Source: an uncultured Gemmatimonadales bacterium
Lineage (GTDB): Bacteria > Gemmatimonadota > Gemmatimonadetes > Gemmatimonadales > Gemmatimonadaceae
Length of the DNA stretch: 64,000 nt
Reading direction: 5' to 3'
Assembly: GCA_963701965.1 (NCBI GenBank)
Contig: OY969695.1
Span: 4,736,001-4,800,000 of the forward strand
The position numbers were made by a program, and so were the translations under genes. Positions 4,409 to 61,907 of the stretch are shown here, piece by piece. The first letter of the stretch is position 1. Every line of letters starts with the position of its first letter. The notes beneath the pieces were generated by a model that was not told the origin of the DNA, ran no database searches, and worked only from the letters and a program-made list of their open reading frames with translations.

Positions 4409-4455
4409 GTTAAGAATACCCGGGGTGACCGGCCCGCGCCGGCCACCCCTTTGAT

Positions 4456-5026: not shown

Positions 5027-5101
5027 GCGAAGCCTCCCGGATGGCGTTGAAGGGTCTGTCCCTAGAACGCAATCGCCGCCGGAAAGCGGACACGCCGCCG
5101 G

Positions 5102-5623: not shown

Positions 5624-5668
5624 TGGGCAAATTAGCGGAAGCGCCAGGTCGGCACTACAGTTCGACGC

Positions 5669-8306
5669 ATGATCGATCGCGATCGGTGGAAGATTCTCGA
5701 ACCGCTCCTCAATCGCGTCCTCGATCTCCCAGTGCCGGAACGGGAGCCGTGGCTCGCGCAGTTGCGGTCGGAGTCGCCGACCCTCGCCGCCGACGTGGCG
5801 ACTTTGTTGGCCGCGGAATCCGACGCCGAGCGAACCGGCTTCCTCGCCGAGCCGCTGCGCATGACGTCCGACGACCTCGCCGTCGGCGCCTACGAGCTCG
5901 AGCGTCCGCTCGGCCATGGGGGAATGGGGACGGTCTGGCTCGCCCGCCGCACGGACGGTCGCTTCGAGGGACGCGCCGCGGTCAAGGTCCTCAACGTCAC
6001 GCACTTGAGCCCGACCGGTGAGGAACGCTTTCGCCGCGAAGGCTCCATGCTGGCGCGCCTCGCCCATCCGGGTATCGCCCGTTTGCTCGACGCTGGCGTC
6101 GCTTCGAACGGGCAACCGTATCTCGTGCTCGAGTATATCGACGGGAAACCGATCGACGTCTACGCCGCCGACGCCGAGCTCGCGACCGACGCGCGCATTC
6201 ACCTCATCCTGCAAGTGCTGGCCGCCGTCGGCCACGCGCACGCCAACCTGATCGTGCACCGCGATCTCAAGCCGAGCAACATCCTCGTCACCCGCGACGG
6301 CGCGGTCAAGCTGCTCGACTTCGGCATCGCGAAACTCCTCGATCCCGAGGGGCGCGGCGATGCGGCCGCGCTGACTGTCGAGGGCGGACGCGCGCTGACA
6401 CCGGAGTTCGCGGCGCCCGAGCAGTTGTGGGGCGATCCGATCACCACGGCGACCGATGTGTACGCCGCCGCCGTGTTGCTGTACGTGCTCTTGGCCGGCC
6501 GTCACCCGACGGCCGCCGGCTGCCGCACGCCGGCCGACGCCATCCGGGCGCTGGTCGAAGTGCAGCCGGCGCGACTCGGCCTCGGCGATCTCGACGTCGT
6601 GCTCGCGAAGGCGCTGCGCAAGGCGCCCGAAGAGCGGTACCAGACGGTCGGCACTTTTGCCGAGGATCTGGAGCGCTATCTGCGAGGCGAGGCGGTCAGC
6701 GCACGCCGCGCGACGGTGCTTTATCGCGCGCGCGCATTCGTTCGCCGCTATCGCGTTGGTGTGGTCGCGGCGGCCGCGGTGTTGGCGTCCCTGGCCGGCG
6801 CGACGGCGTTTTCGACGGCGCAGATGCGAGAGGCGCGCCGTCAGCGCGACGCCGCGTTGCGCGGCGTGAAGCGCTCGCAAGTGATGTCCGACCTCCAAAC
6901 CGTGCTCGCGGGCGACTCGCGGGGACTGGATGGCCGATTGCTCTCCCAGGCCGAGCGCATCGCGCTCGCCGAGCGCATGCTGGCGCCCTACGTGCGGCGC
7001 GAACCGTGGCTCGCCGCCGAGGTCACGGCGGACCTGGCCCAACGCTTCTACGAGAGCGGCGATCGGGAGACCCAGCGCCGGATGCTGGCGCGGGCTCGCA
7101 CGATCGCCCGCGACGCCGCGCTCCCGGCGCAGATCGCGCTGACGGATTGTGAGCGGGCGTACAGTTTCGTGTACGACGATCAGTTCGACTCGGCGCGCGT
7201 CGATCTCGCCGAAGCCAAGGCGGCGCTGGCCCGCCCGGCACCGCGACCGGATTCGGCGGTCGAGAGCGGGTGTCTCGACGCCGAGGGACAGCTGCTCGTC
7301 GGCACCGGAAGTCCCGACTCGGGCATCGCCCTGCTGCGGCGCGCCGTGGCACTCGTGAATACGGACCACGGCGGGTCGGACCGCTTGAGCGCCATCAACG
7401 ATCTCGCGGAGGCGCTCCGGTTGAGCCACCGGATGCGCGAGGCCGTGCCGTACCAGCGGCAGGTGATGGCGGAGCTCGATGCCGCGGGCTATGGGGACAC
7501 GGAGCAGCTGCCCAATGCCCTGTCATTTCTCGACGGGTCGCTGTGGGAGCTCGGTGAGCCGGAGGCCGAGGATGCGGCGATCGCGCCCTTCATCCGCGAG
7601 CAGGAGCAGCGGCACGGTGCCGGCCAGGTCTCGACCCATTCTCGCGTTCCTTTATGGGCAAGCCAAGCTCCGGCGCGGGGACATCGATTCCGCGGATCTG
7701 TGGATCGGCCGCGCCATGCGCGACACGACGGCGGGAGGGAGCGGCATCGGCGACTGGTTGCCGCCGGCGCTCACCCAGCTCCGATTGGAGCAGGGTAGGG
7801 TGGCGGAGGCGAAGCGGGCCAGTGCGGGGCTGGCCGGAGGTCCCCGCGGCCGGCGCGCCAACACCGCCATGCTCCAGGCGCGCATCCGGCGGGCCGAGGG
7901 CGACCCCGGGGGGGCGTCGGCGCTGTTGGAAAACGAGCTCCGGTCCGTGACCAGCGACGGAGGTCCATTGCTCACCCTCTTCGCCATTCCATTGGTGACC
8001 GCCGGCGAGTGGCGCCTCGCAGCGGGCGATGCGCGGGGAGCGGACTCCCTCGCCCGCCTCGCGCTGCGCAGCGCGCTCGTGGACTCCCTCTCGGCTTCCC
8101 GCAGCGCCTTCGCTGGCCGCGCCCAACTGCTCTTGTCGCGCGCCCAGCGGTCGCTCGGGAACGTCGATGTGGCGCAAAACGCCGCCCAGCGTGCGGTCAT
8201 CGCCCTGGCCAACGGTTACGGCGGGGCCAGCGGCGCGGCGCGCGAGGCGCGCGCGCTCGTGGATTCCCTCCTGACCGTCAAGATGCAGCGTCCAGCGGCG
8301 GACTAG
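5669..8306 (+). CDS. Ser/Thr protein kinase with TM helix and TPR-like C-terminus (frameshift near 7640)
   Basis: LGHGGMGTVW, HRDLKPSN, DFGIAK, TPEFAAPEQ; C-terminus continues in ORF 7479-8306. Confidence 0.85.
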
Positions 8307-8324
8307 GGGCCCGAACCGCTACCC

Positions 8325-8340
8325 CTTGTACTTCTACAAG
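8325..8340. promoter_or_regulatory. Palindrome CTTGTA-cttc-TACAAG, putative PadR operator
   Basis: 6-bp inverted repeat 20 bp upstream of padR; related copy at 16637-16652. Confidence 0.6.
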
Positions 8341-8360
8341 AGCGGAGGTATCGTGCGGTC

Positions 8361-8690
8361 ATGTCCGAACGGCTCGATCTCCCGCAGGGCACGCTCGACC
8401 TGCTGATCCTGCGCGCGTTGTCGCTCGGCCCGCGACACGGGTGGGCGATCTCGGAACGCATCCACAATGTCTCGCGCGCCACATTGCAGATTCCCCAAGG
8501 CTCGCTCTACCCTGCGCTGCACCGGTTGGAACGCCGGGGCTGGATCAAGGCGCAGTGGGGCGCGTCCGACAACAACCGCCGGGCCAAATTCTACGAGCTG
8601 ACCCGGGCTGGCCGCCGGCAGCTCGGCGTCGAGACCGATGCCTGGCGCCAACTCACCGCCGCGGTCGCGCTGGTGCTCGACCTGGCCTGA
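8361..8690 (+). CDS. PadR-family transcriptional regulator
   Basis: QGTLDLLILRAL, GSLYPALHRLE, NNRRAKFYELT. Confidence 0.95.
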   Translation: MSERLDLPQGTLDLLILRALSLGPRHGWAISERIHNVSRATLQIPQGSLYPALHRLERRGWIKAQWGASDNNRRAKFYELTRAGRRQLGVETDAWRQLTAAVALVLDLA

Positions 8691-11416
8691 TGTTCAGCGA
8701 CCTCCGCTTCCGCCTACGGGCGCTGTTTCGGCGCGGCACGATGGAGCGCGAGCTCGATGAGGAGCTGCGCTTCCATATCGAGCAGGCCATCGGGAAATAC
8801 GTCGCCGGGGGCATGGCGCCGTCCGAGGCGGCCCGGCAGGCGCGGCTCGCGTTCGGCGGCGTCGAGCGCATCAAGGACGAGAGCCGCGATCAGCGCGGGA
8901 TCTCGTGGTTCGAGCGCCGCGGCGCCGACCTGCGCCTCGCTACGCGTGGCATGCGACGCCAACCCGCGTTCACCGCGGTGGTGGTCGCCACGCTCGGCCT
9001 CGGTCTGGGCGCGAATGTCGCCGTCTTCCGCATTGTCGACCGGCTGCTGCTCCAGCCTCCGGCTTATCTGCACGATCCCGCGCGGGTGCACCGCGTGTAT
9101 CTGCAAGGGCTTCCGGGGCGGATCTTCGTGTTTGGGCGTGGCGGCGATGCCGGCATTCCGTCCATCGGCACCATGGCCTATCCGCGCTTCCGCGATTTGC
9201 AGCGGTGGACGACGTCGTGCGACCGCGTCGCGGCGTTCGCCGACGTCTCGCTGGCCATCGGCACCGGGCAGAACACCCAAGAGCGGTGGGTCAGCGCGGT
9301 CTCCGGCGACTATTTCGACTTGTTTGATGCGCGCCCGGCCGCGGGGCGGTTCCTGGCGCCGCCGGACGACCGCGCTCCCGCGGGATCACCCGTGGCCGTG
9401 TTGAGCCACGCCTTCTGGCGATCGCAGTATGGTGGGCGCCCCGACATCGTGGGCACGGCGCTGCAAATCGGGCCGTTGATCTATACGATCGTCGGCGTCG
9501 CGCCGGAAGGATTCGTCGGTGTCGAGACCACGAACCCACCGATCGCTTTCATCCCGCTCACGAGCTACGCGTACACCCGCGGCGTGCTCGAACACCCGGA
9601 CGCCTACGTCACGAGCTACAACGCCTGGATCGTCACCGTGCTGGCACGGCGCCGCCCGGGGGTCGGTACCACGGCCGCTGCCGCCGATCTCACGAATGCC
9701 TTCCGCCGCAGTCTCTTGGCCGAGCGGGCATCCAGCGCGCGCCGCACGGACTCCCTCGATCTCCATCGCGCCCGGGCGCTGGTGACTCCGGTGATAGAGA
9801 ATCGCGGGCCGGACCGGAACTCGCCGGCCCGGCTCGCGACGTGGACCGGTGGGCTGGCGATGATCGTGCTCCTCATTGCGTGCGCGAACGTCGCCAACCT
9901 GTTGTTGGCCCGGACACTCCAACGTCGCCGGGAATTCGCCATGCGTCTCGCTCTCGGCGTCACGCGCGGTCGTCTCCTGGCGCAAGTGCTCACCGAGACG
10001 CTGGTCCTCGCCGCTCTTGGGGTTGTGGCGGCGATCGCGATCGCCGAGGCCGGCGGCGCCGTGTTGCGGCCGCTGTTCGTGCCCGATGCGCCGTCCTCGG
10101 CCGTCATCGCCGATGGCCGCGCGCTCGTCTTTGCCGGTCTCGCCGCGCTCGTTGCCGGCGTCTTCACCGGTCTCGTGCCGGTGTTCGCCATCGATCGCTC
10201 CGATTGCGCCGACGCGTTCAAGGCCGGCCTGCGGGACACGACGTACCGCGGGTCGCGCGCCCGCGTGGTTCTGCTCGTATTCCAAGCCGCCCTGTCCGTC
10301 GTACTCGTCGTCGGCGCCGGTCTCTTCGTGCGCAGTCTCCAAGCGGCGCGGGCGGTGCGTCTGGGTCTCGACGTCGAGCATCTGATCGCCGTGCAGGCGA
10401 ATCTCCGGGGGCTGGCCCTTCCGGTTGGGCAGCAATACGCCCTGGCGCACCGGCTGGTCGACGGCGCCCGCGTCATCCCGGGTGTCACCGGGGTGGCGCG
10501 CGCCGAATCCGTTCCTTTCTGGTCGATCATGTCCGAAGACTTCACCGTGCCGGGAGTCGATTCGGTCGATCGGCTCGGATTCTTCACGCTGCAGGCGGTG
10601 TCGCCCCAATACTTCACGACCGTGGGCACGCGGATCCTGCGCGGCCGCGGCATTCTGGAGACGGACCGCGCGCGTGGGCCCCGCGTCGTCGTCGTGAGCG
10701 CGGCGATGGCGCGGACGCTGTGGCCGGGCCGCGACGCCCTGGGGCAGTGCATGAAGTTCGGCGCCGATACCAACCCCTGCACGACGGTCGTCGGTATCGC
10801 CGAGGATGCGCGGCAGGTGAGCATCGCGGACGACATCGGGCTCCGATACTATCTGTCTGTCGAGCAGTACGACTCGACGGCCGGCCTCCTGTTCGTCCGC
10901 GTGCGCGACCAGGCGGACGGTTCGATCCAAACGGTGCGGCGGGAGCTGCAGCGTCTCATGCCGGGAGCGACGTACGTCACGGCGACTCCGCTCCGCGCCA
11001 TCGTCGACACCCAGGTCAAGTCGTGGGAGCTGGGCGCGACGATGTTTTTGGTCTTCGGCGCGCTGGCGCTGGCCTTGGCCGCGGTCGGCCTGTACAGCGT
11101 CATCGCCTACGCCGTCGCCCAACGTACGCACGAGCTGGGCGTGCGGGCCGCCCTCGGCGCGCGTCTCGGTGATGTCCTCCGGCTCATCATCGCCGACGGT
11201 CTCCGTTTCGCGGTCGCGGGCATCGTCATTGGCAGTGGCATCGCCTTGGTCGCCGGCCAATGGGTGCGACCCTTGCTGTTCGGCGAGCAGCCGGCCGACC
11301 CCCTCGTGTTCGGCATCGCGATCGGCGTGCTCCTGATGACCGCCGCGGCGTCGAGCGTCATCCCGGCATGGCGCGCCGCGCGCGTCGACCCCATGGAGGC
11401 CCTGCGGGCTGATTAG
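8690..11416 (+). CDS. ADOP-type duplicated MacB/FtsX ABC permease
   Basis: ELDEELRFHI prefix domain, LLIACANVANLLLAR, GLYSVIAYAVAQRTHELGVRAALGA, DPMEALRAD. Confidence 0.92.
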   Translation: MFSDLRFRLRALFRRGTMERELDEELRFHIEQAIGKYVAGGMAPSEAARQARLAFGGVERIKDESRDQRGISWFERRGADLRLATRGMRRQPAFTAVVVATLGLGLGANVAVFRIVDRLLLQPPAYLHDPARVHRVYLQGLPGRIFVFGRGGDAGIPSIGTMAYPRFRDLQRWTTSCDRVAAFADVSLAIGTGQNTQERWVSAVSGDYFDLFDARPAAGRFLAPPDDRAPAGSPVAVLSHAFWRSQYGGRPDIVGTALQIGPLIYTIVGVAPEGFVGVETTNPPIAFIPLTSYAYTRGVLEHPDAYVTSYNAWIVTVLARRRPGVGTTAAAADLTNAFRRSLLAERASSARRTDSLDLHRARALVTPVIENRGPDRNSPARLATWTGGLAMIVLLIACANVANLLLARTLQRRREFAMRLALGVTRGRLLAQVLTETLVLAALGVVAAIAIAEAGGAVLRPLFVPDAPSSAVIADGRALVFAGLAALVAGVFTGLVPVFAIDRSDCADAFKAGLRDTTYRGSRARVVLLVFQAALSVVLVVGAGLFVRSLQAARAVRLGLDVEHLIAVQANLRGLALPVGQQYALAHRLVDGARVIPGVTGVARAESVPFWSIMSEDFTVPGVDSVDRLGFFTLQAVSPQYFTTVGTRILRGRGILETDRARGPRVVVVSAAMARTLWPGRDALGQCMKFGADTNPCTTVVGIAEDARQVSIADDIGLRYYLSVEQYDSTAGLLFVRVRDQADGSIQTVRRELQRLMPGATYVTATPLRAIVDTQVKSWELGATMFLVFGALALALAAVGLYSVIAYAVAQRTHELGVRAALGARLGDVLRLIIADGLRFAVAGIVIGSGIALVAGQWVRPLLFGEQPADPLVFGIAIGVLLMTAAASSVIPAWRAARVDPMEALRAD

Positions 11417-50252: not shown

Positions 50253-50336
50253 GCCGGGATGGCGAAATCGGTAGACGCGAGGGACTTAAAATCCCTTGGG
50301 GGTAACCCCATGCGGGTTCGAAACCCGCTCCCGGCA
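50253..50336 (+). tRNA. trnL: tRNA-Leu(UAA)
   Basis: GCCGGGA/TCCCGGC acceptor stem, loop CTTAAAA, long variable arm, GGTTCGAA T-loop; no encoded CCA. Confidence 0.97.
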
Positions 50337-50337
50337 T
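50283..50337 (+). repeat. att core, left copy (55 bp)
   Basis: Identical to 61853-61907. Confidence 0.95.
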
Positions 50338-50392: not shown

Positions 50393-51565
50393 CTACTTGC
50401 CCGGCTTGGCCCGTTTCTTCGGCTGGGCCTGGGTCGTGCCGCCAGCCGCTCGGGTGACCTCGGCAACCTCCGGCTGATACCGGCCGTAGCGTGTCGCCAC
50501 CAGCATAGTGGACCCATGGCCGAGCTGGTGCGCGATCACGACGTCTGAGACGCCGCGGCGTCGGAGCGTGACCGCGTAGTGGTGCCTGTGGTCGTGCAGC
50601 GTCGACCGGGGCAGGCCGAGCGCCTGGCACGCTGCGTGGTGCGCGTCGAGCGCGAGGTTGTGGTCCAGTTCGGGAAAGAGCAGGGCATTGGGCAGCAGCC
50701 CGGTCACGTGTCCCTCGATGAAGGGTCTCGTCCATCCCTCGGTCACAGCTACCGTCCGGTTGCGCCACGCCGTCTTGCTCCCCGAGGCTTGGACCGTCCA
50801 GGCGTCGAGATCGACGTCGCGCCGACGAAGCCGCTTCGCGACCTGCATCTCGACGCCAGTGCCAGCTAGCAACGCCGCCAGTGCCCGATACTCTAGCGGC
50901 ATAGCCTCCACCAGGCGGCGCACGTCGGAGGGCGCGTACACGGCCGCACGGGCCGCATTCTCGCGTTGCGCCCGGACGTCGCGGACCACGTTGGTCTCAA
51001 GGACCTCCCGCTCGACTAACCAACGGCCGAACTGAGACAACGCCGCCCTGTGTCGGTTGCGCGTGGAAGACGACACTGGCGGCTTCTCGTCGGCCGACGA
51101 CTGAAGGTCAACCAGCCCGGCCAAATGCTCGCTGATGACCTTCCGCCGGAAGCGAGACTTCGGGAAGGGTGCCCCGGCAGGAATCAGCCGACGCACCTGG
51201 GCCAGGTACTTCGCCGCGGTCTCTGGGTGCCGCTGGCGAATCGCGGCGTGCCACGTTTCGACGAGGGGCTCGATGTCCATGTCGTCGAGCTCCACTTTGA
51301 CATCGGACAGCTCCACGTCCGACCGATATTCCGCATACACCTGCAGAAGGGTCTTTCGGCCATCGGCGATCGCGTCGAGCACGTCGAACTCGCCCCTATC
51401 ACGGAGCGACTCGACCATCCGCTCAAGCGCACGGACGGTGCGCTTATCGCTGCTCCCAGTCGAAACGGCGACCAGCCTCCGGTCGGACCGGGGCACCCGC
51501 AGCCGGTACTTGGACCCGTGTAGCCATGCAGCCGCCACCGCCATGCTCCCGTGAGATGTGCTCAC
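50393..51565 (-). CDS. Tyrosine recombinase/integrase
   Basis: STRNRHRAALSQF, GSKT, LHDHRHHYA, QLGHGS, catalytic Tyr in TRYG. Confidence 0.92.
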   Translation of the reverse strand: MSTSHGSMAVAAAWLHGSKYRLRVPRSDRRLVAVSTGSSDKRTVRALERMVESLRDRGEFDVLDAIADGRKTLLQVYAEYRSDVELSDVKVELDDMDIEPLVETWHAAIRQRHPETAAKYLAQVRRLIPAGAPFPKSRFRRKVISEHLAGLVDLQSSADEKPPVSSSTRNRHRAALSQFGRWLVEREVLETNVVRDVRAQRENAARAAVYAPSDVRRLVEAMPLEYRALAALLAGTGVEMQVAKRLRRRDVDLDAWTVQASGSKTAWRNRTVAVTEGWTRPFIEGHVTGLLPNALLFPELDHNLALDAHHAACQALGLPRSTLHDHRHHYAVTLRRRGVSDVVIAHQLGHGSTMLVATRYGRYQPEVAEVTRAAGGTTQAQPKKRAKPGK

Positions 51566-51602
51566 AGTATGGAGCAGAAAATCCCTTGGCGCCAGAGTCC
51601 GG

Positions 51603-51821
51603 TCATGCTGACTTGCGCGCGTACGGGAGGATCACACGTCCCGCTGCGAATGCTTCGAGGTCGGCCGGTCGGTAGCGCCATTGTGGGCGCGTCGCTCCAG
51701 CTGGCGCGATGTCGAGGCGTGGGATATCCGCACGGTCGGCGATCTGCCTCAGGCTGATACCAAGCCAGAGGGCAGCCTCCTTGGCTGTAAAGAGTGCGCC
51801 AGCCGGCCGCACAGGACTCAC
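51603..51821 (-). CDS. Excisionase-like HTH protein
   Basis: LFTAKEAALWLGIS..WRYRPADLEAF; GTGA overlap with sigma gene. Confidence 0.85.
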   Translation of the reverse strand: MSPVRPAGALFTAKEAALWLGISLRQIADRADIPRLDIAPAGATRPQWRYRPADLEAFAAGRVILPYARKSA

Positions 51822-52720
51822 GCCGCGAGCGCCTCAACCAAGCGGCCGGCGTGTCCGGACGCACGCAGTTTCCCTAGGGCCTTTTCTTTGAGCTGCCGCA
51901 CGCGCTCGCGGCTCACCCCCATACGGTCGCCGATTTGCTCCAGCGTCTCGGGCTCTTCGCCGCCAAGGCCGAAAAAGGCATGAAGAACGGCTCGCTCGTG
52001 GTCCGTCACGACGGAGAGAGCGGCGTCTACCGCGCGAACAACATCGGCCTCCGTCAAACTCGCATCTGGAGCGGGGGTCGTTTCATCCGGGATAAATCGC
52101 GCGAATGGAGTTGGCTCGTGCTCGCTCACGGGGGCATCAAGGCTGACCTCTTTCGCCGCGTCGATTGCGAGCAACGCCTTCACGATGTCGATCGACAGGC
52201 CGACCTCTCCGGCTATTTCCTCGGGAGCAGGACTGCGACCCTGACACGCACGGAATGCATCTGCTGCCTTGCCAATCCGCGCCAGATCCGCAGCGCGTCC
52301 GAGCGGCAGCCGGACGGAGCGCCCCGTCGTGGAAATCGACAATAGAATGGCCTGCCGAATCCACCACACTGCATAGCTGATGAAGTTGACCCCGACATCC
52401 GGGTCGTACTTGTCAACCGCGCGGCAGAGCCCCGCGTTGGCTTCGGAGATGAGGTCGTCGAGCGCGAGACCACGGTCGCGATACTTCCAGGCAATCGAAG
52501 ACGCGAACCGCAAGTTCGTCTTAATCAATTCTGCTCTTGCGTACGCACGCTCGTCGGGGGACCGAGTCCTGTCCCGCATCGTCCGGGCAAGTTCTTTCTG
52601 ACGCTCGGCTGGTAGGATCGGCAGGCGCCGGAGTTCGTAGAAGTAGCGTTCGCGAGCAGATTGTGGTGCTGGCTCCCCGCCAATTGGAGCAAGGGCGGCA
52701 CGACCGCGGCGAGTCTTCAT
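51818..52720 (-). CDS. RpoD/RpoS-type sigma-70 factor
   Basis: NLRF, DLISEANAGL, FISYAVWWIRQAI, VRLP, TLEQIG..VSRERVRQ. Confidence 0.92.
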   Translation of the reverse strand: MKTRRGRAALAPIGGEPAPQSARERYFYELRRLPILPAERQKELARTMRDRTRSPDERAYARAELIKTNLRFASSIAWKYRDRGLALDDLISEANAGLCRAVDKYDPDVGVNFISYAVWWIRQAILLSISTTGRSVRLPLGRAADLARIGKAADAFRACQGRSPAPEEIAGEVGLSIDIVKALLAIDAAKEVSLDAPVSEHEPTPFARFIPDETTPAPDASLTEADVVRAVDAALSVVTDHERAVLHAFFGLGGEEPETLEQIGDRMGVSRERVRQLKEKALGKLRASGHAGRLVEALAA

Positions 52721-54116
52721 GCGGCCGCCTCGGGGGCGCTAACTGGGCGACGTCCCGGCCAGCGAGTGGCGTTCTCGAATCGGGTGTACTGTTTGTTGAA
52801 GAACAGATTGACGGTGCCGATGGGCCCGTTCCGCTGTTTGCCGATGATGATCTCGGCCACGCCTTCGAGCGAGTTGTTGTCCTCGTCCTTCGTCTCGCCG
52901 TAGACCTCGGGGCGATGGATGAACAGCACCAGATCGGCATCCTGCTCGATCGCACCGGAGTCACGGAGGTCGGACAACTGCGGTCGTTTGTCAGTCCGGT
53001 GCTTTCCTTCTCGCGAGAGTTGAGACAGGGCGAGTACCGGTACGTTCAGCTCCTTAGCGAGTGCCTTGAGCGACCGAGAGATCGTGGCTACTGCGCGCTC
53101 ACGGGTGTCTTGCCGCCCAGCCGTTCCCTCCGCAATGAGCTGCAGATAGTCGACAGCTACCAAGCCAACCCCACCATCCCGGACCAGCTTGCGGGCCTCG
53201 GCGCGCATCTGGACCATAGTCACGTCCGCGTCGTCGTAGATCTCGATGTCCGCCTTCAACAGGGCACTGCCGGCGCGCGACAACCTGGCCAATTCAGCCA
53301 AATCCTTGGTGCCGCGTCGAATTGACTTATGGAGGTCTAGCCGCCCTTCCATCGCAAGCAACCGATCTGTCAGGGAGTCTTTGCTCATTTCCAGCGAGAA
53401 TACGGCGACGCGCGCACCGGAGGCCGCAGCGTGCTGACAACACTGCAGCATTAGCGCAGACTTGCCCATCCCCGGCCGGGCCGCGAGGATGGCGACATCT
53501 CCCGCGTTGAAATCCTGACGTAAACTCGTCTAGATCGTAAAATCCGCTCGGTACACCCGTTATCGGGTTCCCTGATAATCCGCGGCGCTCGATGCGCTCA
53601 ATCGCCGGGTAAATAAGGTCCCGAAGGGACGCGCGACGGAGGCCGCCCGTTGTGCTGGCCACCGCGATAACTCGTCGCTCGGCCTCGTTTGTCAGGTCCT
53701 CGGCTGATGACTGGGCATTCGAACGCAGACGCCACGATCGCGGTCCCCGCTTCGATGAGCTGGCGCAACCGTGCCTTTTCTCGCACGATGCCAGCGTGGT
53801 GCCCGACGTTCGCGGCAGTGGGCACGGCGTCGACGAGGCGCGAGATGTAGTCCTTGCCGCCCGCTCCATCGAGCTCGCCGCGGCGCTCCAGTTCATCCGA
53901 GAGCGTGAGCGGGTCGATCACGGCGCCGCGCTCGGCGATGGCGATCATGGCGCGGAACAGCCGCCGGTGCGCCGGCCGGTGGAACATCGCGTCGGTCAGG
54001 ACCTCGGACGCGCGCATCACGGCGTCCGTGTCGATCATCATCGCCGCCAGCACCGCCTGCTCCGCATCCTCGGAGTATGGGGGTTGCCGGTCTGCAAACG
54101 GGTCACGTTGAGTCAT
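52717..54116 (-). CDS. dnaB: Replicative DNA helicase DnaB (apparent 1-bp insertions near 53502 and 53718)
   Basis: PPYSEDAEQAVL, VPTAAN, ARPGMGKS, VDYLQL, LSQLSR, LRDSGAIEQDAD, KQRNGPIG. Confidence 0.92.
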
Positions 54117-54436
54117 GCCGCGACCTCAACGTCTTGCTCAGGTACGCACTCGATATGATAGAGCGCGCCTGCGACTTCGATCTCGGGAGCGAAGCCGTTG
54201 CACCCGGCGCAGCATGGTGGTCGCGTCGCGGGTGTGTGCTCGGTCGTTTTACGGCTTTCAGTGACTGCTCTCGTCTCAGCCTGGCCATTCTTGGGGTCCC
54301 AATGATCGTTCGGTCCCTAACGGATCAGCATGTCCGCATGGGCGATCACCCCAGGCCTGTAGTGTTCTCGCATCACCCAGCCTAGCGTTGGACTCCCGTC
54401 AAATCGGCGGGGAGGCTCAAACCCAACGGAGGCTGT

Positions 54437-54568
54437 ATGTCACGCATCGCCACTCGCGTCATCCTGCTCATCACCGCCGCCACGCTGGCCGCTTGTGCGA
54501 CCACGACGGCACCGACGGCGAATGATTGCGGTGGAGGATCTGGCGTAGGCTCAGGCAATCACTGCTGA
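54437..54568 (+). CDS. 43-aa lipoprotein-type peptide precursor (not in ORF track)
   Basis: GGAGG RBS; MSRIATRVILLITAATLAACATTTAPTANDCGGGSGVGSGNHC*. Confidence 0.8.
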   Translation: MSRIATRVILLITAATLAACATTTAPTANDCGGGSGVGSGNHC

Positions 54569-54580
54569 CCAGCCACGTCG

Positions 54581-54617
54581 GCGTTGACGGCTACTGCTCT
54601 CCGGTAGCCGTCAACGC
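54581..54617. terminator. Perfect 14-bp hairpin where the peptide and TPR genes converge
   Basis: GCGTTGACGGCTAC-9nt-GTAGCCGTCAACGC; no U-tract. Confidence 0.6.
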
Positions 54618-56086
54618 TTGCTCGCGCCGTTCACGGAGCCGCTGTGCGAGCGCATCGCGCAATTCCTTCGACATGCCCGCTACCGCTGGCTCGACGGGTG
54701 GGATGTCATCAAGAACCTCGAACCGGTATTGGTTGAGACCATACTCTCGCGCGATCTCCTGCATTCTCGCGAAGGTGTCTGCCGACATGGCGTCGCGACC
54801 GAACCGCCTGAATCCTTGCGCGAGCCGCCAATAAAAGTCGGCCTGCATGTCGACAGGAATCTCGGACGGGTCACCCATCGCCCGGCAATGGTGCTCGAAC
54901 GCCATTTCATCGCTGTCTTTTCATTCGCGAGCCGCAGGAGGCAGATGGTGGCGTGGGCGCGGGTCGCCCTCTGAGCGCCGGTGGCTTGGTTGATCAGGAG
55001 CGCATCCCGCGCGGATTCCCGCTCTCCCACATGCGTGAGGACGTTGGCCAAGTCCTCCAGTGCCCGTTCCTGCTGAAGCACCTCGTCGTAGAGCTCCAGG
55101 GCGGCGAAGAGAGACGCTGCGGCTGACACGTACTTGCCCATCTTCATTTCGGCGAGCCCGCGATCGTGCGTCGCCATCGCCTCCGCAGCCCGGTGACCAT
55201 CCGCCTGCGCAGCGAAGACGACGCCCTCTAGGAGACGGACCGCATCCGGCATGTTGCCGCGGTGCATCGCGAGACACCCTTCGGCATTGCGCACGCGAAG
55301 AACGGCCGCCTGGTCACCAATGGCCGTGGCAATGCGCTCGCCCTCTCGGTATGCATCAGCGGCCTTGTCGAGTAACCCTAACTGGCGGCAGCAATACCCC
55401 AGGCGGACATAGACCAGCGGGAGGCCGCTCTTGTCATCTGGACCCCGCGAATACTCACGCGCTGTCTCGTAGACGTCGATCGCCGGTGCCCACTCGCCTA
55501 GGTCCTCCAGCAAGAGGCCGTAGCTGAACAGCAGGACCGGGATGGGTCCCACGTCCGCGGTCGTGACGGCCTTCACGTTATCGGTCAGTCTGAGGAGCAC
55601 GTCCCGCGCGCAATGATCGTCGATTCCTTCGATGAGCTGACGCAACAGTACAAACTCGCGGAGCGTCGGATCGCGGCCCGAGACATCCCTCGTAGCCCAC
55701 CGATCCAACAGCCGCAAAGTGAGCATGCCCGAGACGAGGACATGCCGTCGCGGCGAATGCGCGTCTCCGAGTGCGGCGAGTCGATCAAAGAAAGCCAGAT
55801 GTGGGAGGGCCGGGCCGACATCCTTCAATTCCGAATTGGATGGGGCCAAGTCCAGATAGGCATCCGTCCCGTGCCAGCGCGGCTCGCGGCCGGCATTGGC
55901 CGTGTCGCCGTCGATAGGCTGCCATCGGTACTCGAGCCTTGCGTCCCCCCGCTCGTCGTAGGCGATCAGCGCGGTTCGCCGATACCCATTGCAGCACTTG
56001 GCCGCATCCGCCGCGCTCTGCCATGAATGCGGCTCTGGGCCAGAGCACAGAAACACACCTGGCGGGTTGGTCTCGTCGTCGGCCAT
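54591..56086 (-). CDS. TPR-repeat protein, putative peptide receptor (frameshift near 54922; start uncertain)
   Basis: TPR helices YGLLLEDLGEWAPAIDVY, LGYCCRQLGLLDKAADAY, HDRGLAEMKMGKY; C-terminus in ORF 54591-54905. Confidence 0.75.
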
Positions 56087-56245
56087 GGGGCGCGGTCGGG
56101 GTTTTTCCGCGTGTCGTGGCGCACACTCACAACACTGTCGTCGGAGGGAACGTACGGCGCCGCACCCTGTTGGCCAGATGCGAGAACACATTGAGCCTGG
56201 TCTGTCGACCATCTTCGCCCGTAGCGTCACGGGCGCGCCGGATGG

Positions 56246-56497
56246 TTAGTGCCGCGTCTTCCGCTTCCCGGTTGGCCGTCTCACCGGTTGCGGGACGTAG
56301 TCGAAGAGTGCCCCCGGTTCGACTTGGAGGACATTGCACAGCGCTTGGAGTAGTCCGAGGCTCACCCGAGTCAGTTCGCCGCGCTCCCGAACGAGCCGGT
56401 AGAGGGTTGACTCCGTCAGGCGACCGCCCGAATCGCGGGCGATCTCGTAGGGGCTCTGCTTTCGCTCGTCGAAGATCTCCGGGATTCGTAAGCGCAT
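56246..56497 (-). CDS. Cro/C1-type HTH regulator
   Basis: SPYEIARDSG..STLYRL..LCNVLQVEPGALF. Confidence 0.85.
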   Translation of the reverse strand: MRLRIPEIFDERKQSPYEIARDSGGRLTESTLYRLVRERGELTRVSLGLLQALCNVLQVEPGALFDYVPQPVRRPTGKRKTRH

Positions 56498-56532
56498 ATG
56501 TGGCACGAAACTACGGCGATCTGCGCGGGCCG

Positions 56533-56586
56533 GTACTGTCGGTAATGAGTGCACGCGTTAACGGGTGCACTCAGTCTTGACAGTAC
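56533..56586. promoter_or_regulatory. 54-bp nested palindrome between divergent HTH genes, contains TTGACA
   Basis: GTACTGTC-N5-TGAGTGCAC-gCGTTAACGg-GTGCACTCA-N5-GACAGTAC. Confidence 0.8.
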
Positions 56587-56615
56587 GGCCGCCATGGCGC
56601 TTATTCACCCCACCC

Positions 56616-56882
56616 ATGGCACCCAATCCCTCACGCCGTCGCGCACTACTCACCTGCGAGAAGGTCGGCCGGGCCGTTCGCGTTCTTCGTGAGCGACGCG
56701 GATTGAGTCAGGCGAAGCTCTCCGCGCTGGCTGGCGTCGACCGACCTGCGCTCGGCAGCATCGAGCGGGGCAAGCAATGGGGGATCCTGAGTACCTATGA
56801 CAAGCTGCTCCTGGCGATGAACGCCAGCTGGATCGAGTTCGCGACCGTACTCGACATGCTCGCCGCTAGCAAGCAGTCGTGA
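56616..56882 (+). CDS. XRE-family HTH regulator
   Basis: VRVLRERRGLSQAKLS..LGSIERG. Confidence 0.88.
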   Translation: MAPNPSRRRALLTCEKVGRAVRVLRERRGLSQAKLSALAGVDRPALGSIERGKQWGILSTYDKLLLAMNASWIEFATVLDMLAASKQS

Positions 56883-57736: not shown

Positions 57737-57857
57737 GCAACCGAAGGAAGAAGAAGCCGAAGGGCGGCAGCCACGACCAGGTTAGCGCACGCCGCAAGCA
57801 GCGGGACGAGGAGCTAGAGCAGATTGCTCTGTACCCCGATTCGTGAGACAGTTTGGG

Positions 57858-58697
57858 CTAACCCATGAGACCCGCCGCGACGGCGACCGCCGCGCGGTAC
57901 TGCTGTGGCGCCTGGAAGCCGAGTGCCGAGTGCGGCGCGACCGCGTTGTAGTCGGCGATCCAGGCCGGGATCTGCGCGAGGACCGCGGCCGCCGCACTCC
58001 GATCGGCCCCGCTCACGTAGTCCCGTTTGAGGGTGTTGACGAACGCTTCCGACATCCCGTTCGATTCCGGACTCGCCTTGGGCGTGGTGATCGGCTCCAG
58101 ATGCAGGCGCTCGGCCGTGCAGATCGTGTCCAGCGCGGTGTAGATACTGCCGTTGTCACTCAACCACTGGATCGGCGCATTGGGCCGCGCGCCGACCCCG
58201 AAGCGCCCCGTGACCGCGCGGTGCATCAGCTGCTGGATATCGGACGCCACCAGATCGCGCGCTGCCGCCACGTACGCCAGCACCTCGCGATCGTGACAGT
58301 CCAACGCGAAGCCGATCTGCACGTATTCCCCGTTCCAACACGCGATCTCCAGCCCGTCAGAGCACCAGCGCTCGTTCGACACCGGTCGCTGGATCTGCCC
58401 CGTGTGCGCCCGCCCAGTGCGCCGCCGACACCGCCGCGGGAGCGTCCACCCATTCACCGCCATGACCCGGCGGATCCGCTTCACGTTGTACGCGGTGCCG
58501 AACGCCCGGTTGACCAGGGCCCGCACGCGCCGCGACCCGTACGTCGCTCGCGTCCGGATGACATCACGGATCTGCGCCGTCACGACGCGGTCGTCGGCCC
58601 GGGCGTAGTGCGGACCGCGCACCCGCTCCGGGCGATAGGCGCTCGCCCGGCCCATCCCCAGCACGCGACAGATCGCGGCCACCCTCCGACCGGTCAT
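57858..58697 (-). CDS. IS3-family transposase OrfB (DDE)
   Basis: SNERWCSDG, LDCHDRE, WLSDNGS, SNGMSEAFV, PHSALG. Confidence 0.95.
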   Translation of the reverse strand: MTGRRVAAICRVLGMGRASAYRPERVRGPHYARADDRVVTAQIRDVIRTRATYGSRRVRALVNRAFGTAYNVKRIRRVMAVNGWTLPRRCRRRTGRAHTGQIQRPVSNERWCSDGLEIACWNGEYVQIGFALDCHDREVLAYVAAARDLVASDIQQLMHRAVTGRFGVGARPNAPIQWLSDNGSIYTALDTICTAERLHLEPITTPKASPESNGMSEAFVNTLKRDYVSGADRSAAAAVLAQIPAWIADYNAVAPHSALGFQAPQQYRAAVAVAAGLMG

Positions 58698-59047
58698 CGC
58701 TTGGACACGCCGTAGTAGCTGGGCCTTTTTTTTATCTCCTCCCGCGCCGCGTGGAGAATCTCGATCTCCATGGTCTTCTTCCCCAGCGCGCGTTCCAGCT
58801 CCTTGATCCGCTGCTGCGCGGCCCGCAACTCACTCGCCGGTACCACCTCCTCGTTCGCCGTCACCGCCGTCGTGCTCCCGCGATCGGCGAGCTGCTTCCA
58901 GCGCCGGATCACCGACTGTTCCACCGCCAACTCGCGGCTCAGCTCCGCGATGGTGACCTCCTCGCGCAGCACGCGGCTGACCTGCTCCCGCTTGAATGCG
59001 GCGGTGAAGATCCGCCGTCCGTCCGAACCCCGCCGGTGTGTTTCCAT
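58694..59047 (-). CDS. IS3-family transposase OrfA
   Basis: RRIFTAAFK HTH, IKELERALGKK; A8G slippery site at 58725-58733. Confidence 0.92.
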   Translation of the reverse strand: METHRRGSDGRRIFTAAFKREQVSRVLREEVTIAELSRELAVEQSVIRRWKQLADRGSTTAVTANEEVVPASELRAAQQRIKELERALGKKTMEIEILHAAREEIKKRPSYYGVSKR

Positions 59048-59414
59048 TGGATCGATCTCCGTTGAGAAGCCAACCTACACTTCCCAAAGTGCCTCGTCCA
59101 ATCGGGGTACAGAGCAAGATCAGGCGGGCCGGCGAAGAGCTGGCGGCGTTGGGACTGGCCGAGGTGGTGCGCGACGCCGCCGGCAATCAGGTCGGTTTCA
59201 AGATCACAGGGGACGGCGAAGCTTTCGCCCAAGCCATGGTCTCTCCGCGCGCGACTTCCTGCGATAGGCCCCTGGTGCGATCAGGATGCGACTAGGCCAT
59301 CTCGGCCTAGGCGACCTTGCAGAGTTGCAATGTCTTGCCGATCGCCGATTGGTGCACCATTGTCGTGCGCTTGCCGGCCGTCAGTCGATAGAACTCCTCA
59401 CCAATCGGACGTAC

Positions 59415-59801
59415 GTGATCATCTTCCTGGTTTGGGTGGCGTGCGGCGTTCTAGGCGCGGCGCTGGGCGCCGACAAGAACAACGGCTGCATGGGCGCCGG
59501 CCTTGGGTTGCTCCTCGGCCCTATAGGTGTGGTGATCGTGCTGTTAATGCCAGACAACCGGCCAACCCCGACCGCAGATGACGAATCGCCGCTCGACGGT
59601 CGGGAGTGTCCGTTCTGCCGGAAGGACATTCACCCACTGGCGGTGATTTGCCCGTACTGCCGCAGCGCTCTGGCGCCGGCATCTCAGGCCGATCCGGCGC
59701 CCGATGCCGACCCGACTTCACGCGTCACATCGAATCGCGTCCGAGTGCGTCTCAGCGGTGAAATCGCCGCCAGGCCCAAGATCGATCGTAGCGACGGGTG
59801 A
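59415..59801 (+). CDS. Small membrane protein with zinc ribbon
   Basis: Two TM segments (GLLLGPIGVVIV); CPFC..CPYC. Confidence 0.7.
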   Translation: MIIFLVWVACGVLGAALGADKNNGCMGAGLGLLLGPIGVVIVLLMPDNRPTPTADDESPLDGRECPFCRKDIHPLAVICPYCRSALAPASQADPAPDADPTSRVTSNRVRVRLSGEIAARPKIDRSDG

Positions 59802-59861
59802 ACGGTGAAGCGATGGCCGAGCCGGCTCGGCCATCGAGTCGCCAAATCCTTACCAGTGCCC

Positions 59862-60509
59862 ATGATGACTAAGAGCGAACGCGCACACTGCAATGGATGC
59901 GGCGGCGAAACCCTGCACACCATACTGGTGGAGCGTCAGCAACCAGGCTCCGAAGATATCTCCGGCGACGGAAGCCTGAGCATCTCTTGGCTAACGACGT
60001 GGGCAATGCTTGAATGCGCCGGATGCCTGACCGTATGCATGCGTCGGAGTTATTGGTTCTCCGAGACCGATGAAGTCTCGGTCGAGTTCTTTCCACCTCC
60101 CATTGCGCGAAAGCCACCGAGTTGGCTTCCAGCGCTGTCCGACGGCGTGGGCACGTTGCTCACTCAGCTGTATGTCGCACTCAACGCTGGCAGCCTGCGA
60201 CTAGCCATGATCGGGGCACGCTCGCTCATCGACGACGCGGTACAGGCTAAGATCGGTGATGCGGGAGGATTTGAGCGGAAGCTCGACATCATGCTGGAGC
60301 AGCAACTGATTTCGGAACCGCAAAAGCAGCGGCTCCTAGCAGCAGTCGAAACTGGCAATGCGGCGATCCATCGCGGGCACTCTCCATCGTTTGAGGACGC
60401 CGAATTGGTCATGGACATTGTAGAGGGCATGCTGCGCGACGAGTTACTCAGCGAGCGTGCGGCCGACTTGTACGAAAGAACACCTAAGAGGAATCCCCCG
60501 CGATCCTAA
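59862..60509 (+). CDS. DUF4145 (HEPN-like) protein with N-terminal zinc ribbon
   Basis: HCNGC..ECAGC; MIGARSLID; GNAAIHRG. Confidence 0.8.
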   Translation: MMTKSERAHCNGCGGETLHTILVERQQPGSEDISGDGSLSISWLTTWAMLECAGCLTVCMRRSYWFSETDEVSVEFFPPPIARKPPSWLPALSDGVGTLLTQLYVALNAGSLRLAMIGARSLIDDAVQAKIGDAGGFERKLDIMLEQQLISEPQKQRLLAAVETGNAAIHRGHSPSFEDAELVMDIVEGMLRDELLSERAADLYERTPKRNPPRS

Positions 60510-60511
60510 GG

Positions 60512-61492
60512 TCACCGAGAGAAACCACGCTGCCACATCTCGTCGAACTCGAACCCGGTTGATCGCAGGCCCTTGATAACACCTTCAACCAAGCCTCTGG
60601 CATGCCAGTAGGAGAGAGTCCGTCCCTTACCACGAGCGAATGCGGCTGCGCCACCAGTGGCGAACACTACGATCGAAGGATCCCCGCCCTGGATCCAGCT
60701 ATATCCGCGGGCCAGGATCAAGATGGCATTCAGTCGCTCATACCCGGGCCGCCACACGTAGTTGTCGCTGTCATAGGCCAACGCCTTCAACGCACTCAGG
60801 CACCGTCGCGCTTCGCCGATGTAGCTATCTCGCCGTGCCACTGCCTCCGATTCTGGCACCCATCCGAGACCAGGCAACCCTAGTACCTCGGTGAGATCGA
60901 GAAGGGCTGCTCCCGTGACATCATAGTCCCGCAATTGCTTCGCAGCTTCCTCAACGGCGCCCTTAAGGCTCGCCTCATGCTTTGGCCTTTTGACCTCAAC
61001 TCCGTACAGCGACATGCCCTGTTCCACGATGAAATCCGGCGATCTGCCATTCCCGGCGCGGGGAACGCTTGGAAACAGCCCACCATGATCGAGAATGGTG
61101 CCGACCCACAATTGCGTTTGGAACCGGTACGCAGCCTGGCCGCGACGAACATCGCTGCCTCGCCCCTTCTGTGCGGCTTGAAGCTGAGCGGCCATTTCGA
61201 TCGAACGCGCCGCCGGAAGAAGCCGCGCTATCTCGCCGACCTCGATTGAATCAAGAATCGCGTTGCCTACCAGTTTCTGATCGGAGACCGCGTCGGGGAA
61301 GACCCGTGCATCGGCGACTGCTCTGAGCGCCCCGATCTCTTCGCGAAGCCGACCAAACTCGGGCACGCGTACGCCAGAATTGCCAAAGCCGCTAATGGCA
61401 TCTTCGAGACGGCCCGCAAGGGCCGCGCAGTCTGCAGGACGAACGCGAGAATCGAGGGGACCAGGGTAGGGGTGCGGCACGGGCCCAAACAT
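60512..61492 (-). CDS. Hypothetical protein with PD-(D/E)XK nuclease-like motif
   Basis: SPDFIV..YGVEVKR..AAKQL. Confidence 0.6.
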   Translation of the reverse strand: MFGPVPHPYPGPLDSRVRPADCAALAGRLEDAISGFGNSGVRVPEFGRLREEIGALRAVADARVFPDAVSDQKLVGNAILDSIEVGEIARLLPAARSIEMAAQLQAAQKGRGSDVRRGQAAYRFQTQLWVGTILDHGGLFPSVPRAGNGRSPDFIVEQGMSLYGVEVKRPKHEASLKGAVEEAAKQLRDYDVTGAALLDLTEVLGLPGLGWVPESEAVARRDSYIGEARRCLSALKALAYDSDNYVWRPGYERLNAILILARGYSWIQGGDPSIVVFATGGAAAFARGKGRTLSYWHARGLVEGVIKGLRSTGFEFDEMWQRGFSR

Positions 61493-61771: not shown

Positions 61772-61852
61772 TCCGGTGCATTTCGATGCGTTTCTGTGCC
61801 GGGTTATGCGCCAATAGAGGCGGTTAAGTGGGCTATTGATGGTGCCGTGAAC

Positions 61853-61907
61853 GACTTAAAATCCCTTGGGGGTAACCCCATGCGGGTTCGAAACCCGCTC
61901 CCGGCAT
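61853..61907 (+). repeat. att core, right copy (3' part of tRNA-Leu)
   Basis: Identical to 50283-50337. Confidence 0.95.

Follow-up and report, generated by a model that had tools for sequence, protein, structure and literature searches.

The peptide–TPR gene pair and its junction

We analyzed a stretch of 64,000 nucleotides (henceforth the window) from the genome of an uncultured soil bacterium of the Gemmatimonadales, family Gemmatimonadaceae (assembly GCA_963701965.1, contig OY969695.1, positions 4,736,001 to 4,800,000 of the forward strand), which is assembled as a single contig of 5.12 Mb with 67% G+C. The subject is a small open reading frame (ORF) for a 43-residue lipobox peptide, which runs convergently towards a gene for a tetratricopeptide repeat (TPR) protein. 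The two constitute one copy of a conserved, previously undescribed two-gene module of the Gemmatimonadales, which in the window is carried whole by an island of ~11.6 kb. The core of the locus comprises the following features, in window coordinates:

54428-54432, + strand: Shine-Dalgarno-like GGAGG, 4 nt before the peptide ATG
54437-54568, + strand: gene for the 43-residue lipobox peptide, product MSRIATRVILLITAATLAACATTTAPTANDCGGGSGVGSGNHC
54580-54618: junction hairpin of 17 pairs, arms 54580-54596 and 54602-54618, with a perfect 14-bp core
54591-56086, − strand: gene for the TPR protein, ~498 residues if read through, matching Pfam TPR families

The small protein begins with a basic n-region, followed by a hydrophobic core and the lipobox L-A-A-C that ends the signal; a post-Cys motif ATTTAP and a short linker then lead to the tail loop CGGGSGVGSGNHC, in which 11 residues of Gly/Ser character are bracketed by two Cys. 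Hence, the attributes that the original prediction, made from the nucleotide sequence alone, had ascribed to this ORF (a strong ribosome-binding site, a LAAC lipobox, a T/A/P linker and a Cys-bracketed loop) are all present. It is predicted to be a Sec/SPII-type lipoprotein precursor, and the lipoprotein machinery is encoded in the genome (one match over the cut-off to PF01790, Lgt, and two to PF01252, LspA). An identical 43-residue product (P0082) is known from another assembly. Given that 206 ORFs of at least 30 residues overlap 16 kb of this genome, the presence of such an ORF by itself proves nothing; it is the family pattern described below, namely the pairing with TPR paralogs, that lifts it above chance. 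No Pfam family matched the peptide at E <= 0.01, PHROGs and PADLOC returned no match, and NCBIfam gave nothing above its cut-offs, the sub-threshold matches being confined to the signal peptide (LptM and YgdI/YgdR). The entericidin and colicin-lysis small-lipoprotein families were likewise without a match to it in Pfam or NCBIfam.

The product of the TPR gene has a CHCC mini-domain at its N terminus, joined by a Pro-rich linker to a TPR solenoid. Pfam detected TPR families only (TPR_1/2/12), and the protein has no signal peptide and no helix-turn-helix (HTH) domain detectable by Pfam, as the original prediction had it. The mini-domain, of ~45 residues (55900-56086, − strand), carries the invariant pattern C-x-G-x3-H-x-W-x4-DA-x2-CCNG-x2-R and is shared with the paralogs at loci L009, L010, L011 and L014, that is, with one subclade of the TPR family only. 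Its Cys and His residues possibly form a CHCC metal site. A model of it has a beta-beta-alpha-beta-beta order, with a predicted local distance difference test score (pLDDT) of 69 overall and 76-94 over residues 11-60, and a Foldseek search with this model yielded no PDB match at E <= 0.001.

The two genes meet tail to tail: the peptide stop ends at 54568 and the TPR stop codon begins at 54591, so that the proposed 22-bp gap is borne out by the coordinates. The perfect 14-bp hairpin proposed at this junction is also real and extends to 17 pairs, its right arm lying inside the 3′ end of the TPR reading frame. It is stable on either strand, with −33.9 kcal/mol on the + strand (z −5.1; 0 of 200 shuffles as stable) and −31.4 kcal/mol on the − strand (z −3.6), and junction hairpins with z < −2, as judged by mononucleotide shuffles, were seen in 30 of 54 pairs. 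It is likely to be a two-way terminator; a scan of the junction found neither a T-run terminator nor a sigma-70-like promoter.

Conservation of the pair across the Gemmatimonadales

The TPR protein has 17 paralog matches within its own genome, and seven of these are followed just downstream by a convergent small ORF with a signal peptide, an A-C lipobox and a T-[AG]-P motif; six of the seven peptides also display a C..C tail. A genome-wide scan for a signal and a lipobox followed by x2-5-[ST][AG]P and at most 45 further residues returned 16 matches. Nine of them are Arg/Ser-rich off-frame artefacts, and the seven that look real are the very same ORFs, all convergent with a TPR paralog at a distance of 8-148 bp. 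A stricter pattern gave seven matches, six of them adjoining a paralog and one spurious, and a looser lipobox pattern gave 410, with 16 of these no more than 900 bp away from a paralog vs 4.3 expected. Each of the seven peptide genes is preceded, just upstream of its start, by a purine-rich AGG-containing stretch (GGAGG, GGAG, GAGG or AGG). Two pairs in this genome are linked to mobile elements, one residing on the integrated island and the other beside IS21. The copy at 945199-946653 has, like the window, an XRE-type HTH gene directly upstream of the TPR gene and a second, divergent HTH gene, and the paralog locus L012 resembles the window in layout, with an HTH_3 gene upstream of the TPR gene and a divergent HTH_31 gene.

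As a protein, too, the short ORF proved to be conserved: across 31 aligned sequences the A-C of the lipobox and a Pro six residues after the Cys are invariant (31/31), and the lipobox Cys stands 17-30 residues from the start. A Cys-x(6-13)-Cys loop ends 22 of the 31, the rest keeping a Gly/Ser/Asn-rich tail; the precursors have 39-50 residues and a Gly/Ser/Thr-rich mature part of ~20-28. At E <= 1e-3, a search of 1.84 billion representatives with the peptide profile recovered 434 clusters (50% identity). Among the 150 matches listed, most are of 39-55 residues and span nearly the whole profile, and the named members that we checked are all annotated "hypothetical protein" of Gemmatimonadaceae. 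In 17 within-genus comparisons the identity amounts to 89% (95/107) in the post-Cys motif, 61% in the signal, 59% (123/209) in the tail and 37% (37/99) in the linker; the higher value of the tail relative to the linker indicates that the tail is constrained within the genus. From one genus to another, among these same 17 pairs, the tail differs.

Like MgrB, the entericidins and the colicin lysis proteins, these peptides have fewer than 50 residues and are predicted to be membrane-anchored, with periplasmic Cys residues or a mature part rich in Gly. Unlike them, they match no family and are strictly coupled in the genome to a gene for a cytoplasmic TPR protein. One could picture a membrane-active small lipoprotein, be it a lytic, release or antagonistic lipopeptide, for which the TPR protein would act as a regulator or guard. 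Entericidins and colicin lysis proteins are comparable to such a lipopeptide in size, and the short precursor and mature part, the lipobox, the Gly/Ser/Thr-rich body and the presence of one copy on a mobile island would all be in keeping with it. We nevertheless hold such a function to be very unlikely: Pfam (E <= 0.01) and NCBIfam (above cut-offs) know no relative of the peptide, there is no sign of an amphipathic helix, the tail is predicted to be a short disulfide loop, and most genomes have a single chromosomal copy with regulator neighbors.

Beyond this genome, a TPR profile (A1) built from 14 paralogs matched 33 of 61 genomes of relatives at E <= 1e-10, with its own genome included (23/36 in family f1, 9/12 in f2 and 0/12 in f3). 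A search of the phylum at E <= 1e-20, again with its own genome included, matched 118 of 301 genomes (39/69 in f1, 71/125 in f2, 3/6 in f4, 1/1 in f5 and 3/47 in f7), with zero in the other six families scored. A profile search of genome contigs with a close alignment (A7) gave five named loci; the window TPR protein as a lone query against genome contigs retrieved no relative. The named relatives are soil metagenome-assembled genomes of Gemmatimonadaceae or Gemmatimonadales, and the TPR clusters in the ESM Atlas are unnamed or generic and all belong to Gemmatimonadota. Most genomes encode one copy; five congeners have 8-28 matches each. One locus (L030) from an unpublished genome (G012) contributes a single row to the counts and alignments, and genomes G102 and G216 enter only the tallies of the phylum search.

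The peptide gene accompanies these TPR genes widely. When each genome is represented by its best TPR locus, 27 of 30 loci have a convergent lipobox ORF at a distance of −36 to 241 bp from the TPR stop. In this set L022 represents the own genome, loci L025, L026 and L050 have none (L025 shows a weak match to the peptide profile), and the ORF at L051 is atypical (81 residues). Further best-per-genome loci add 22 of 23 (L085 has none), and the combined count, with the own-genome L022 excluded, is 48 of 52. In the five congeners we recovered 39 full-length peptide-profile matches (E <= 1e-4; seven signal-peptide-only matches were set aside), of which 34 are convergent with a TPR gene, three stand in tandem upstream of one and two have no listed TPR gene; conversely, 35 of the 71 congener TPR matches of at least 900 nt have a peptide. 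The tandem arrangement, with the peptide gene 110-246 bp upstream on the same strand, is seen at G005:C261:23699-23821, G003:C5:1270389-1270505 and G001:C89:136232-136363. The expectation that TPR homologs would be neighbored by short lipobox ORFs was thus confirmed when tested (7/17 in this genome, 27/30 and 22/23 elsewhere, and 37 of the 39 congener peptides adjoining a TPR gene), and in the six genomes scanned (this one and the five congeners) a peptide is hardly ever seen without a TPR gene.

The closest relatives of the window TPR protein itself depart from this pattern. No lipobox ORF lies downstream in the 14 loci scanned of the 20 closest metagenome loci (the other six are fragments), a match at L058 looking spurious. 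In these relatives (loci of the P0002-P0007 type and orthologs of L009), the TPR gene is followed by a gene for a PALP-type enzyme or by a convergent gene for a secreted protein of ~170 residues. In the orthologs of L009 (genome 4916949-4926529; L059, L061, L062 and L069), a convergent protein of 169-173 residues with a signal peptide replaces the mini-lipoprotein. The gene next in the four metagenome loci (L059, L061, L062 and L069) codes for a protein with an N-terminal Cys/His anti-sigma-like motif. A quick IQ-TREE phylogeny with SH-aLRT supports places the peptide-bearing state at the base, unites the genus expansion in one clade (support 96) with several losses, and makes the window copy the sister (support 97) of the peptide-less metagenome proteins.

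A Pfam survey of 133 flanking ORFs at 47 loci of other genomes, with flanks ending at 1.5 kb, revealed the usual partners of the pair. In 39 of the 47 loci, the TPR gene has downstream of it, on its own strand, a gene for an AraC-type HTH_18 protein; in the 38 AraC loci that have a peptide, its gene is situated in between on the opposite strand, divergent from the AraC gene, with a median of 120 bp between the starts. A single-domain receiver gene comes next in at least 18 loci. Upstream of the TPR gene, 16 of the 47 loci have a polysaccharide deacetylase gene and only five a gene of the peptide-binding SBP_bac_5 type. These flanks show no conserved gene for a dedicated exporter, protease or importer, and no type III secretion system genes were found among the ORFs scanned with Pfam. 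In the genome at hand, AraC is absent from six of the seven pairs. Two paralogs here keep it: one has a peptide, and in the other (L010) the TPR and AraC genes overlap by 4 nt and are followed by a PqqD/asparagine-synthase pair. This peptide-less locus (genome 4333115-4342665, ORFs 4049-9165) also has an ABC transporter upstream; the combination of PqqD-like and asparagine-synthase-like genes is typical of lasso-peptide clusters.

The module is thus mainly chromosomal and mostly single-copy, with AraC and receiver genes as its usual partners, contrary to the original prediction, which had presented it as a communication module of a mobile element. The island copy is one offshoot of this chromosomal Gemmatimonadales module and belongs to a genus-specific expansion.

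This context invites an explanation in which the small lipoprotein is the output: a regulated envelope lipopeptide whose transcription would be controlled by the TPR protein together with the AraC or XRE-type HTH protein. Its lipid-anchored disulfide loop could act in the periplasm, for instance as a connector exerting feedback on a membrane sensor upstream of the neighboring receiver domain; the MgrB-type small membrane regulators offer a likeness. The divergence of the peptide gene from AraC (38 loci, median 120 bp), the frequency of AraC (39/47) and of the receiver (at least 18 loci), the invariant lipobox, which argues for a membrane-bound product, and the want of conserved export or import genes beside the pair all speak for it. 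On the other hand, the pairs have duplicated many times per genome without AraC while their tails diverged, as is typical of cognate recognition pairs and less easily accounted for if the lipoprotein were a simple regulated structural product, and the peptides almost never stand without a TPR gene in the six genomes scanned. We regard this envelope function as possible, if doubtful.

The same neighborhood raises the prospect of a partner-switching co-activator, where the TPR protein would hold the unexported pre-peptide in the cytoplasm and, upon export of the latter, be freed to co-activate the AraC-type regulator. The type III secretion chaperones SicA and IpgC co-activate InvF and MxiE in this way, and those systems, too, join a TPR protein with an AraC-family regulator and an exported partner. 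The proximity of the TPR and AraC genes (39/47 loci; the 4-nt overlap in L010) would suit such a switch, as would a weak NCBIfam match of the TPR protein to LcrH/SycD (TIGR02552; E 4.3e-5). The score of that match, however, is 23.3 bits against a cut-off of 104.8, and a TPR protein of ~430 residues is far larger than the LcrH/SycD-type chaperones of ~165. Moreover, unlike SicA-InvF and IpgC-MxiE, the scanned flanks have no type III secretion genes, and most of the expanded pairs, including that in the window, are without AraC. No Sec substrate of 40 residues is known to depend on a chaperone of this kind, and a partner switch of this kind is, in our judgment, quite unlikely.

The island and the candidate control elements around the pair

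Around the pair, the window displays the following elements:

54362-54374, + strand: 13-mer GTGTTCTCGCATC, after CCAGGC-N8, ending 62 nt before the peptide ATG
56177-56189, − strand: second copy of the 13-mer GTGTTCTCGCATC, after CCAGGC-N8, ending 90 nt before the TPR ATG
56246-56554, − strand: Cro/C1-type HTH gene (HTH_26), immediately upstream of the TPR gene, which shares its strand
56565-56882, + strand: XRE-type HTH gene (HTH_3), divergent from the HTH_26 gene
50393-54116, − strand: row of int, xis, sigma-70 and dnaB genes, separated by a 320-bp spacer from the divergent peptide gene

The genome (5.1 Mb) contains no exact copies of the 13-mer other than these two, each oriented with its gene; together they also make up an inverted repeat (I9), and a copy with one mismatch lies upstream of the peptide gene of the paralog at 945199-946653. 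It is a candidate for a shared promoter or operator element, and the presence of the same rare sequence before both genes suggests a common control of the convergent peptide and TPR genes, a point that would also suit the regulated envelope lipopeptide described above. Between the divergent HTH genes, and exactly there, lies a 27-nt near-palindrome (I3; 56533-56586; 81% complementary, arms abutting), which looks like an operator for an HTH switch. The HTH_26 protein is a candidate for the DNA-binding partner of the TPR protein, its gene taking the position that AraC has at other loci; a comparison of the HTH genes that precede the TPR genes in the window, L012 and L011 shows no clear orthology (16-30% identity). 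On the other side, the int–xis–sigma-70–dnaB row occupies the place of the AraC–receiver operon of the ancestral loci. Pfam and the coordinates thus agree with the predicted placement of the pair between an HTH switch and the dnaB-sigma-xis-int genes, with the peptide gene divergent from the latter.

The island is inserted at a tRNA-Leu(taa) gene (50253-50336) and is bordered by a 62-nt direct repeat of the tRNA 3′ end (50276-50337 and 61846-61907, 95% identical). Its G+C content is 63.5% vs 67% for the window, its G+C content at third codon positions (GC3) is below that of the surroundings, and Rfam detected tRNA only.

Two of its genes are interrupted in the assembly. The TPR gene had been taken as one frame from 54591 to 56086, which does not hold: this span is 1496 nt, not a multiple of three, and a match to homologs needs frame A (56086 down to ~54921) followed by frame B (54905 down to 54591). 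From the alignment with intact homologs, which have 476-486 residues and are 47-50% identical, the break is located at ~54906-54925, between "..LLRLAN" and "MAFEHHCRAMGDP". Likewise, dnaB (52717-54116) is split over three frames by two breaks. Together with the insertion of an IS3-type element in the island, these breaks might signify that the window copy is a decaying remnant, with the TPR and dnaB genes as pseudogenes and the pair inactive. Against this, the contigs of a soil DNA run are without one letter at 53718, and dnaB regains continuity across its first two frames when this letter is dropped. The same element in a second public record has a TPR product (P0001) with 271 of 273 residues identical in the frame that the two share; this product departs from the frame at two different positions, at both of which the window follows the homologs, and the peptide is identical in both records. 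The letter lacking at 53718 in the run and the breaks of P0001 at other places make the interruptions look like assembly errors and not decay; that in the TPR gene is probably one such error, and we deem it rather unlikely that the copy is a remnant. This one soil DNA run holds a share of 0.17 of the stretch, its contigs covering 11 of 30 bins; they miss the TPR frame break and the peptide coding region beyond its first bases, and the second dnaB break (~53330-53470) lies outside their coverage. Among the sequencing runs listed there is no RNA run containing the stretch.

We also record the remaining content of the island. The IS3-type insertion (57824-59117), so labeled from its layout, has perfect 18-bp inverted repeats (57824-57841 and 59100-59117) and two overlapping transposase ORFs on the − strand (58694-59047 and 57858-58697), whose GC3 of 0.86-0.88 is above that of the island genes. 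The sigma-70 family gene (51818-52720, − strand), situated between dnaB and xis, has regions 2, 3 and 4 all present. Its product is similar both to phage sigma factors (phrog_351, 1.8e-57) and to the sigma portion of MzaA from the MZA defence system (PADLOC 5.4e-30), the NCBIfam score for the latter, 178 bits, falling far short of the cut-off of 800. Three cargo proteins are encoded at 59286-61492: one of 171 residues, which combines a membrane stretch with a part resembling a double zinc ribbon; a DUF4145 protein (phrog_1305, "DNA binding protein"); and one of 326 residues without a family in Pfam, NCBIfam, PHROGs or PADLOC.

Likeness to TPR-receptor signaling systems

For the fold of the TPR protein we modeled the paralog at 644230-645561, whose peptide has 39 residues, with AlphaFold2 (AF2) on a 42-row alignment. 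The model (pLDDT 95; predicted template modeling score, pTM, 0.90) predicts a soluble all-helical solenoid of 21 helices, with conserved polar residues at R153, D177, N197, H233-D234-R235, D271 and N308. Foldseek ranked LGN/Pins, designed TPRs and OGT first and placed Rap of pLS20, NprR and RapJ at ranks 35-47. By VIA Z scores, the receptors of the RRNPP family reach 22.6 (NprR), 21.3 (Rap of pLS20), 21.0 (RapH) and 20.8 (RapI), the Rap range being 19-21, and the other proteins 24-25.7 (LGN), 20.6 (OGT), 19.4 (designed TPRs) and 19.0 (MalT domain III). The N-terminal helices 17-92 of the model fall within the Rap alignment span (model 32-376 vs RapH 4-370). In the comparison with RRNPP receptors that the original prediction had proposed, NprR and Rap thus come out as the closest bacterial structures, without standing above TPR proteins of a generic kind. 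Searches with Pfam, NCBIfam and PHROGs gave no membership in the Rap, NprR, PlcR, Rgg, PrgX or AimR families, and PHROGs and PADLOC returned one weak generic TPR row only. A prediction of the TPR–peptide complex (alignments A4 and A5) scored an ipSAE of 0.02 and 0.02, controls not having been run, and speaks neither for nor against binding.

The recurrence of the same pair across the order suggests a peptide-and-receptor signaling pair, and an RRNPP-like reading is our best guess, which we hold tentatively and well short of conviction. The likeness to the RRNPP(A) systems of Firmicutes (Rap-Phr, NprR-NprX, PlcR-PapR and AimR-AimP) lies in a cytoplasmic TPR protein beside a short gene for an exported propeptide, in a C-terminal part that is the conserved, lineage-specific element of the propeptide, and in the presence of many paralogous pairs per genome, with some receptors lacking a peptide and some copies on mobile elements. 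The layout of the peptide, with its conserved tail and variable linker, resembles that of a propeptide at the sequence level, and the pattern of expansion (8-28 TPR matches per genome vs mostly one, with spread in the absence of AraC) resembles, by analogy, that of Rap-Phr. The duplication of bare pairs, the scarcity of orphan peptides, the existence of orphan TPR genes, the genus-constrained tail and the spread to an island together favor a cognate recognition pair. The presence of Lgt and LspA in the genome and the 13-mer shared by the two genes of the window pair also count in favor of the signaling reading. A precedent for lipobox propeptides exists in Firmicutes: receptors without a pheromone are common among RRNPPA systems, and 211 of 2,734 RRNPPA propeptides were predicted to be Sec/SPII substrates, with enrichment on mobile elements (PMC9765709).

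There are also clear differences from these systems: here the genes are convergent, vs tandem there, which is unusual for Bacillus-type systems; the lipobox is invariant; the tail is usually a predicted disulfide loop of 7-13 residues vs a linear 5-10-mer; the receptor has no HTH domain, a separate AraC-type or XRE-type gene standing beside the TPR gene; and no sequence-family link joins the two, the host phylum being Gemmatimonadota. In the enterococcal sex pheromone systems, lipoprotein precursors give rise to signals for PrgX, a cytoplasmic RRNPP receptor that controls the transfer of a mobile element. The signal there consists of the signal peptide cleaved off a larger, ordinary lipoprotein, whose gene lies at another site of the chromosome; unlike this, the present pairs have a dedicated mini-lipoprotein beside the TPR gene, with a mature tail conserved within the genus.

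In such a signaling pair, the small protein would be exported and processed as a lipoprotein-type propeptide, with lipidation followed by release of the tail. The peptide might then re-enter the cell, or else be sensed across the membrane, so that its variable C-terminal loop would be perceived by its own cytoplasmic TPR protein, conceivably by binding in the TPR groove. The TPR protein may act through a separate DNA-binding partner, which would be the AraC protein in the ancestral loci and the XRE-type HTH protein on the island. On the island, the position of the dnaB-sigma-xis-int row in the place of AraC and the receiver makes it reasonable to suppose that the target of control is this divergent row, and with it replication and excision.

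Several observations weigh against this signaling role. The TPR protein has no HTH domain and belongs to none of the known receptor families, and its fold does not discriminate, with the eukaryotic LGN scoring above all RRNPP proteins and OGT and the designed TPRs about level with them. The peptide and TPR genes are convergent and not co-transcribed. Gemmatimonadota are expected to be diderm, and in a diderm envelope a lipid-anchored peptide would have to be released, cross the outer membrane and be imported, tasks for which no dedicated exporter, protease or importer is conserved in the neighborhood of the pair; the SBP_bac_5 genes at five of the 47 loci are no more than a lead to re-import by an oligopeptide permease. 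The closest relatives of the window TPR protein lack the peptide, and the window frame itself is broken once in the assembly. Finally, the AraC and receiver context, with the peptide gene divergent from AraC, fits a regulator and its target gene equally well, and the regulated envelope lipopeptide is the main rival, nearly as likely as the RRNPP-like reading. It is the lack of a family link, the undiscriminating fold, the diderm envelope, the want of export and import genes and this regulator-target look that keep our confidence low.

Of the analogy to RRNPP systems in a diderm that was originally proposed, what stands is a conserved pair that duplicates as a unit, with some receptors lacking a peptide and a tail better conserved than the linker; its depiction as a mobile device does not stand, and the frame of the window copy is broken. 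Within the paper library searched, nothing joins Gemmatimonad with RRNPP. The publications joining Gemmatimonad with lipobox, among the matches listed and going by their titles and the starts of their abstracts, deal with other subjects, and those on Gemmatimonad quorum sensing, peptide or tetratricopeptide contained nothing relevant among the matches listed. Peptide signaling via cytoplasmic TPR receptors is framed as a Firmicute trait in the literature (PMC10075063, PMC9765709).

In its fullest form, the signaling interpretation would make this the first TPR-receptor peptide-pheromone system outside Firmicutes: order-wide in the diderm Gemmatimonadales, with disulfide-looped mini-lipoprotein propeptides, ~10-25 cognate pairs per genome in one soil genus and an island copy that times replication and excision. 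This composite we consider conceivable but on the doubtful side. What the analysis does define is a compact, testable and widespread gene pair, with hundreds of peptide clusters, in an abundant and poorly studied soil phylum. Should the two genes indeed code for a signal and its receptor, diderm bacteria, too, would be credited with cell-cell peptide communication and with its capture by mobile elements, and the pair would show how a lipid-anchored precursor can serve as a signal. Should the lipoprotein instead be a regulated component of the envelope, it would still represent a new mini-lipoprotein family with a dedicated TPR/AraC/receiver control circuit.

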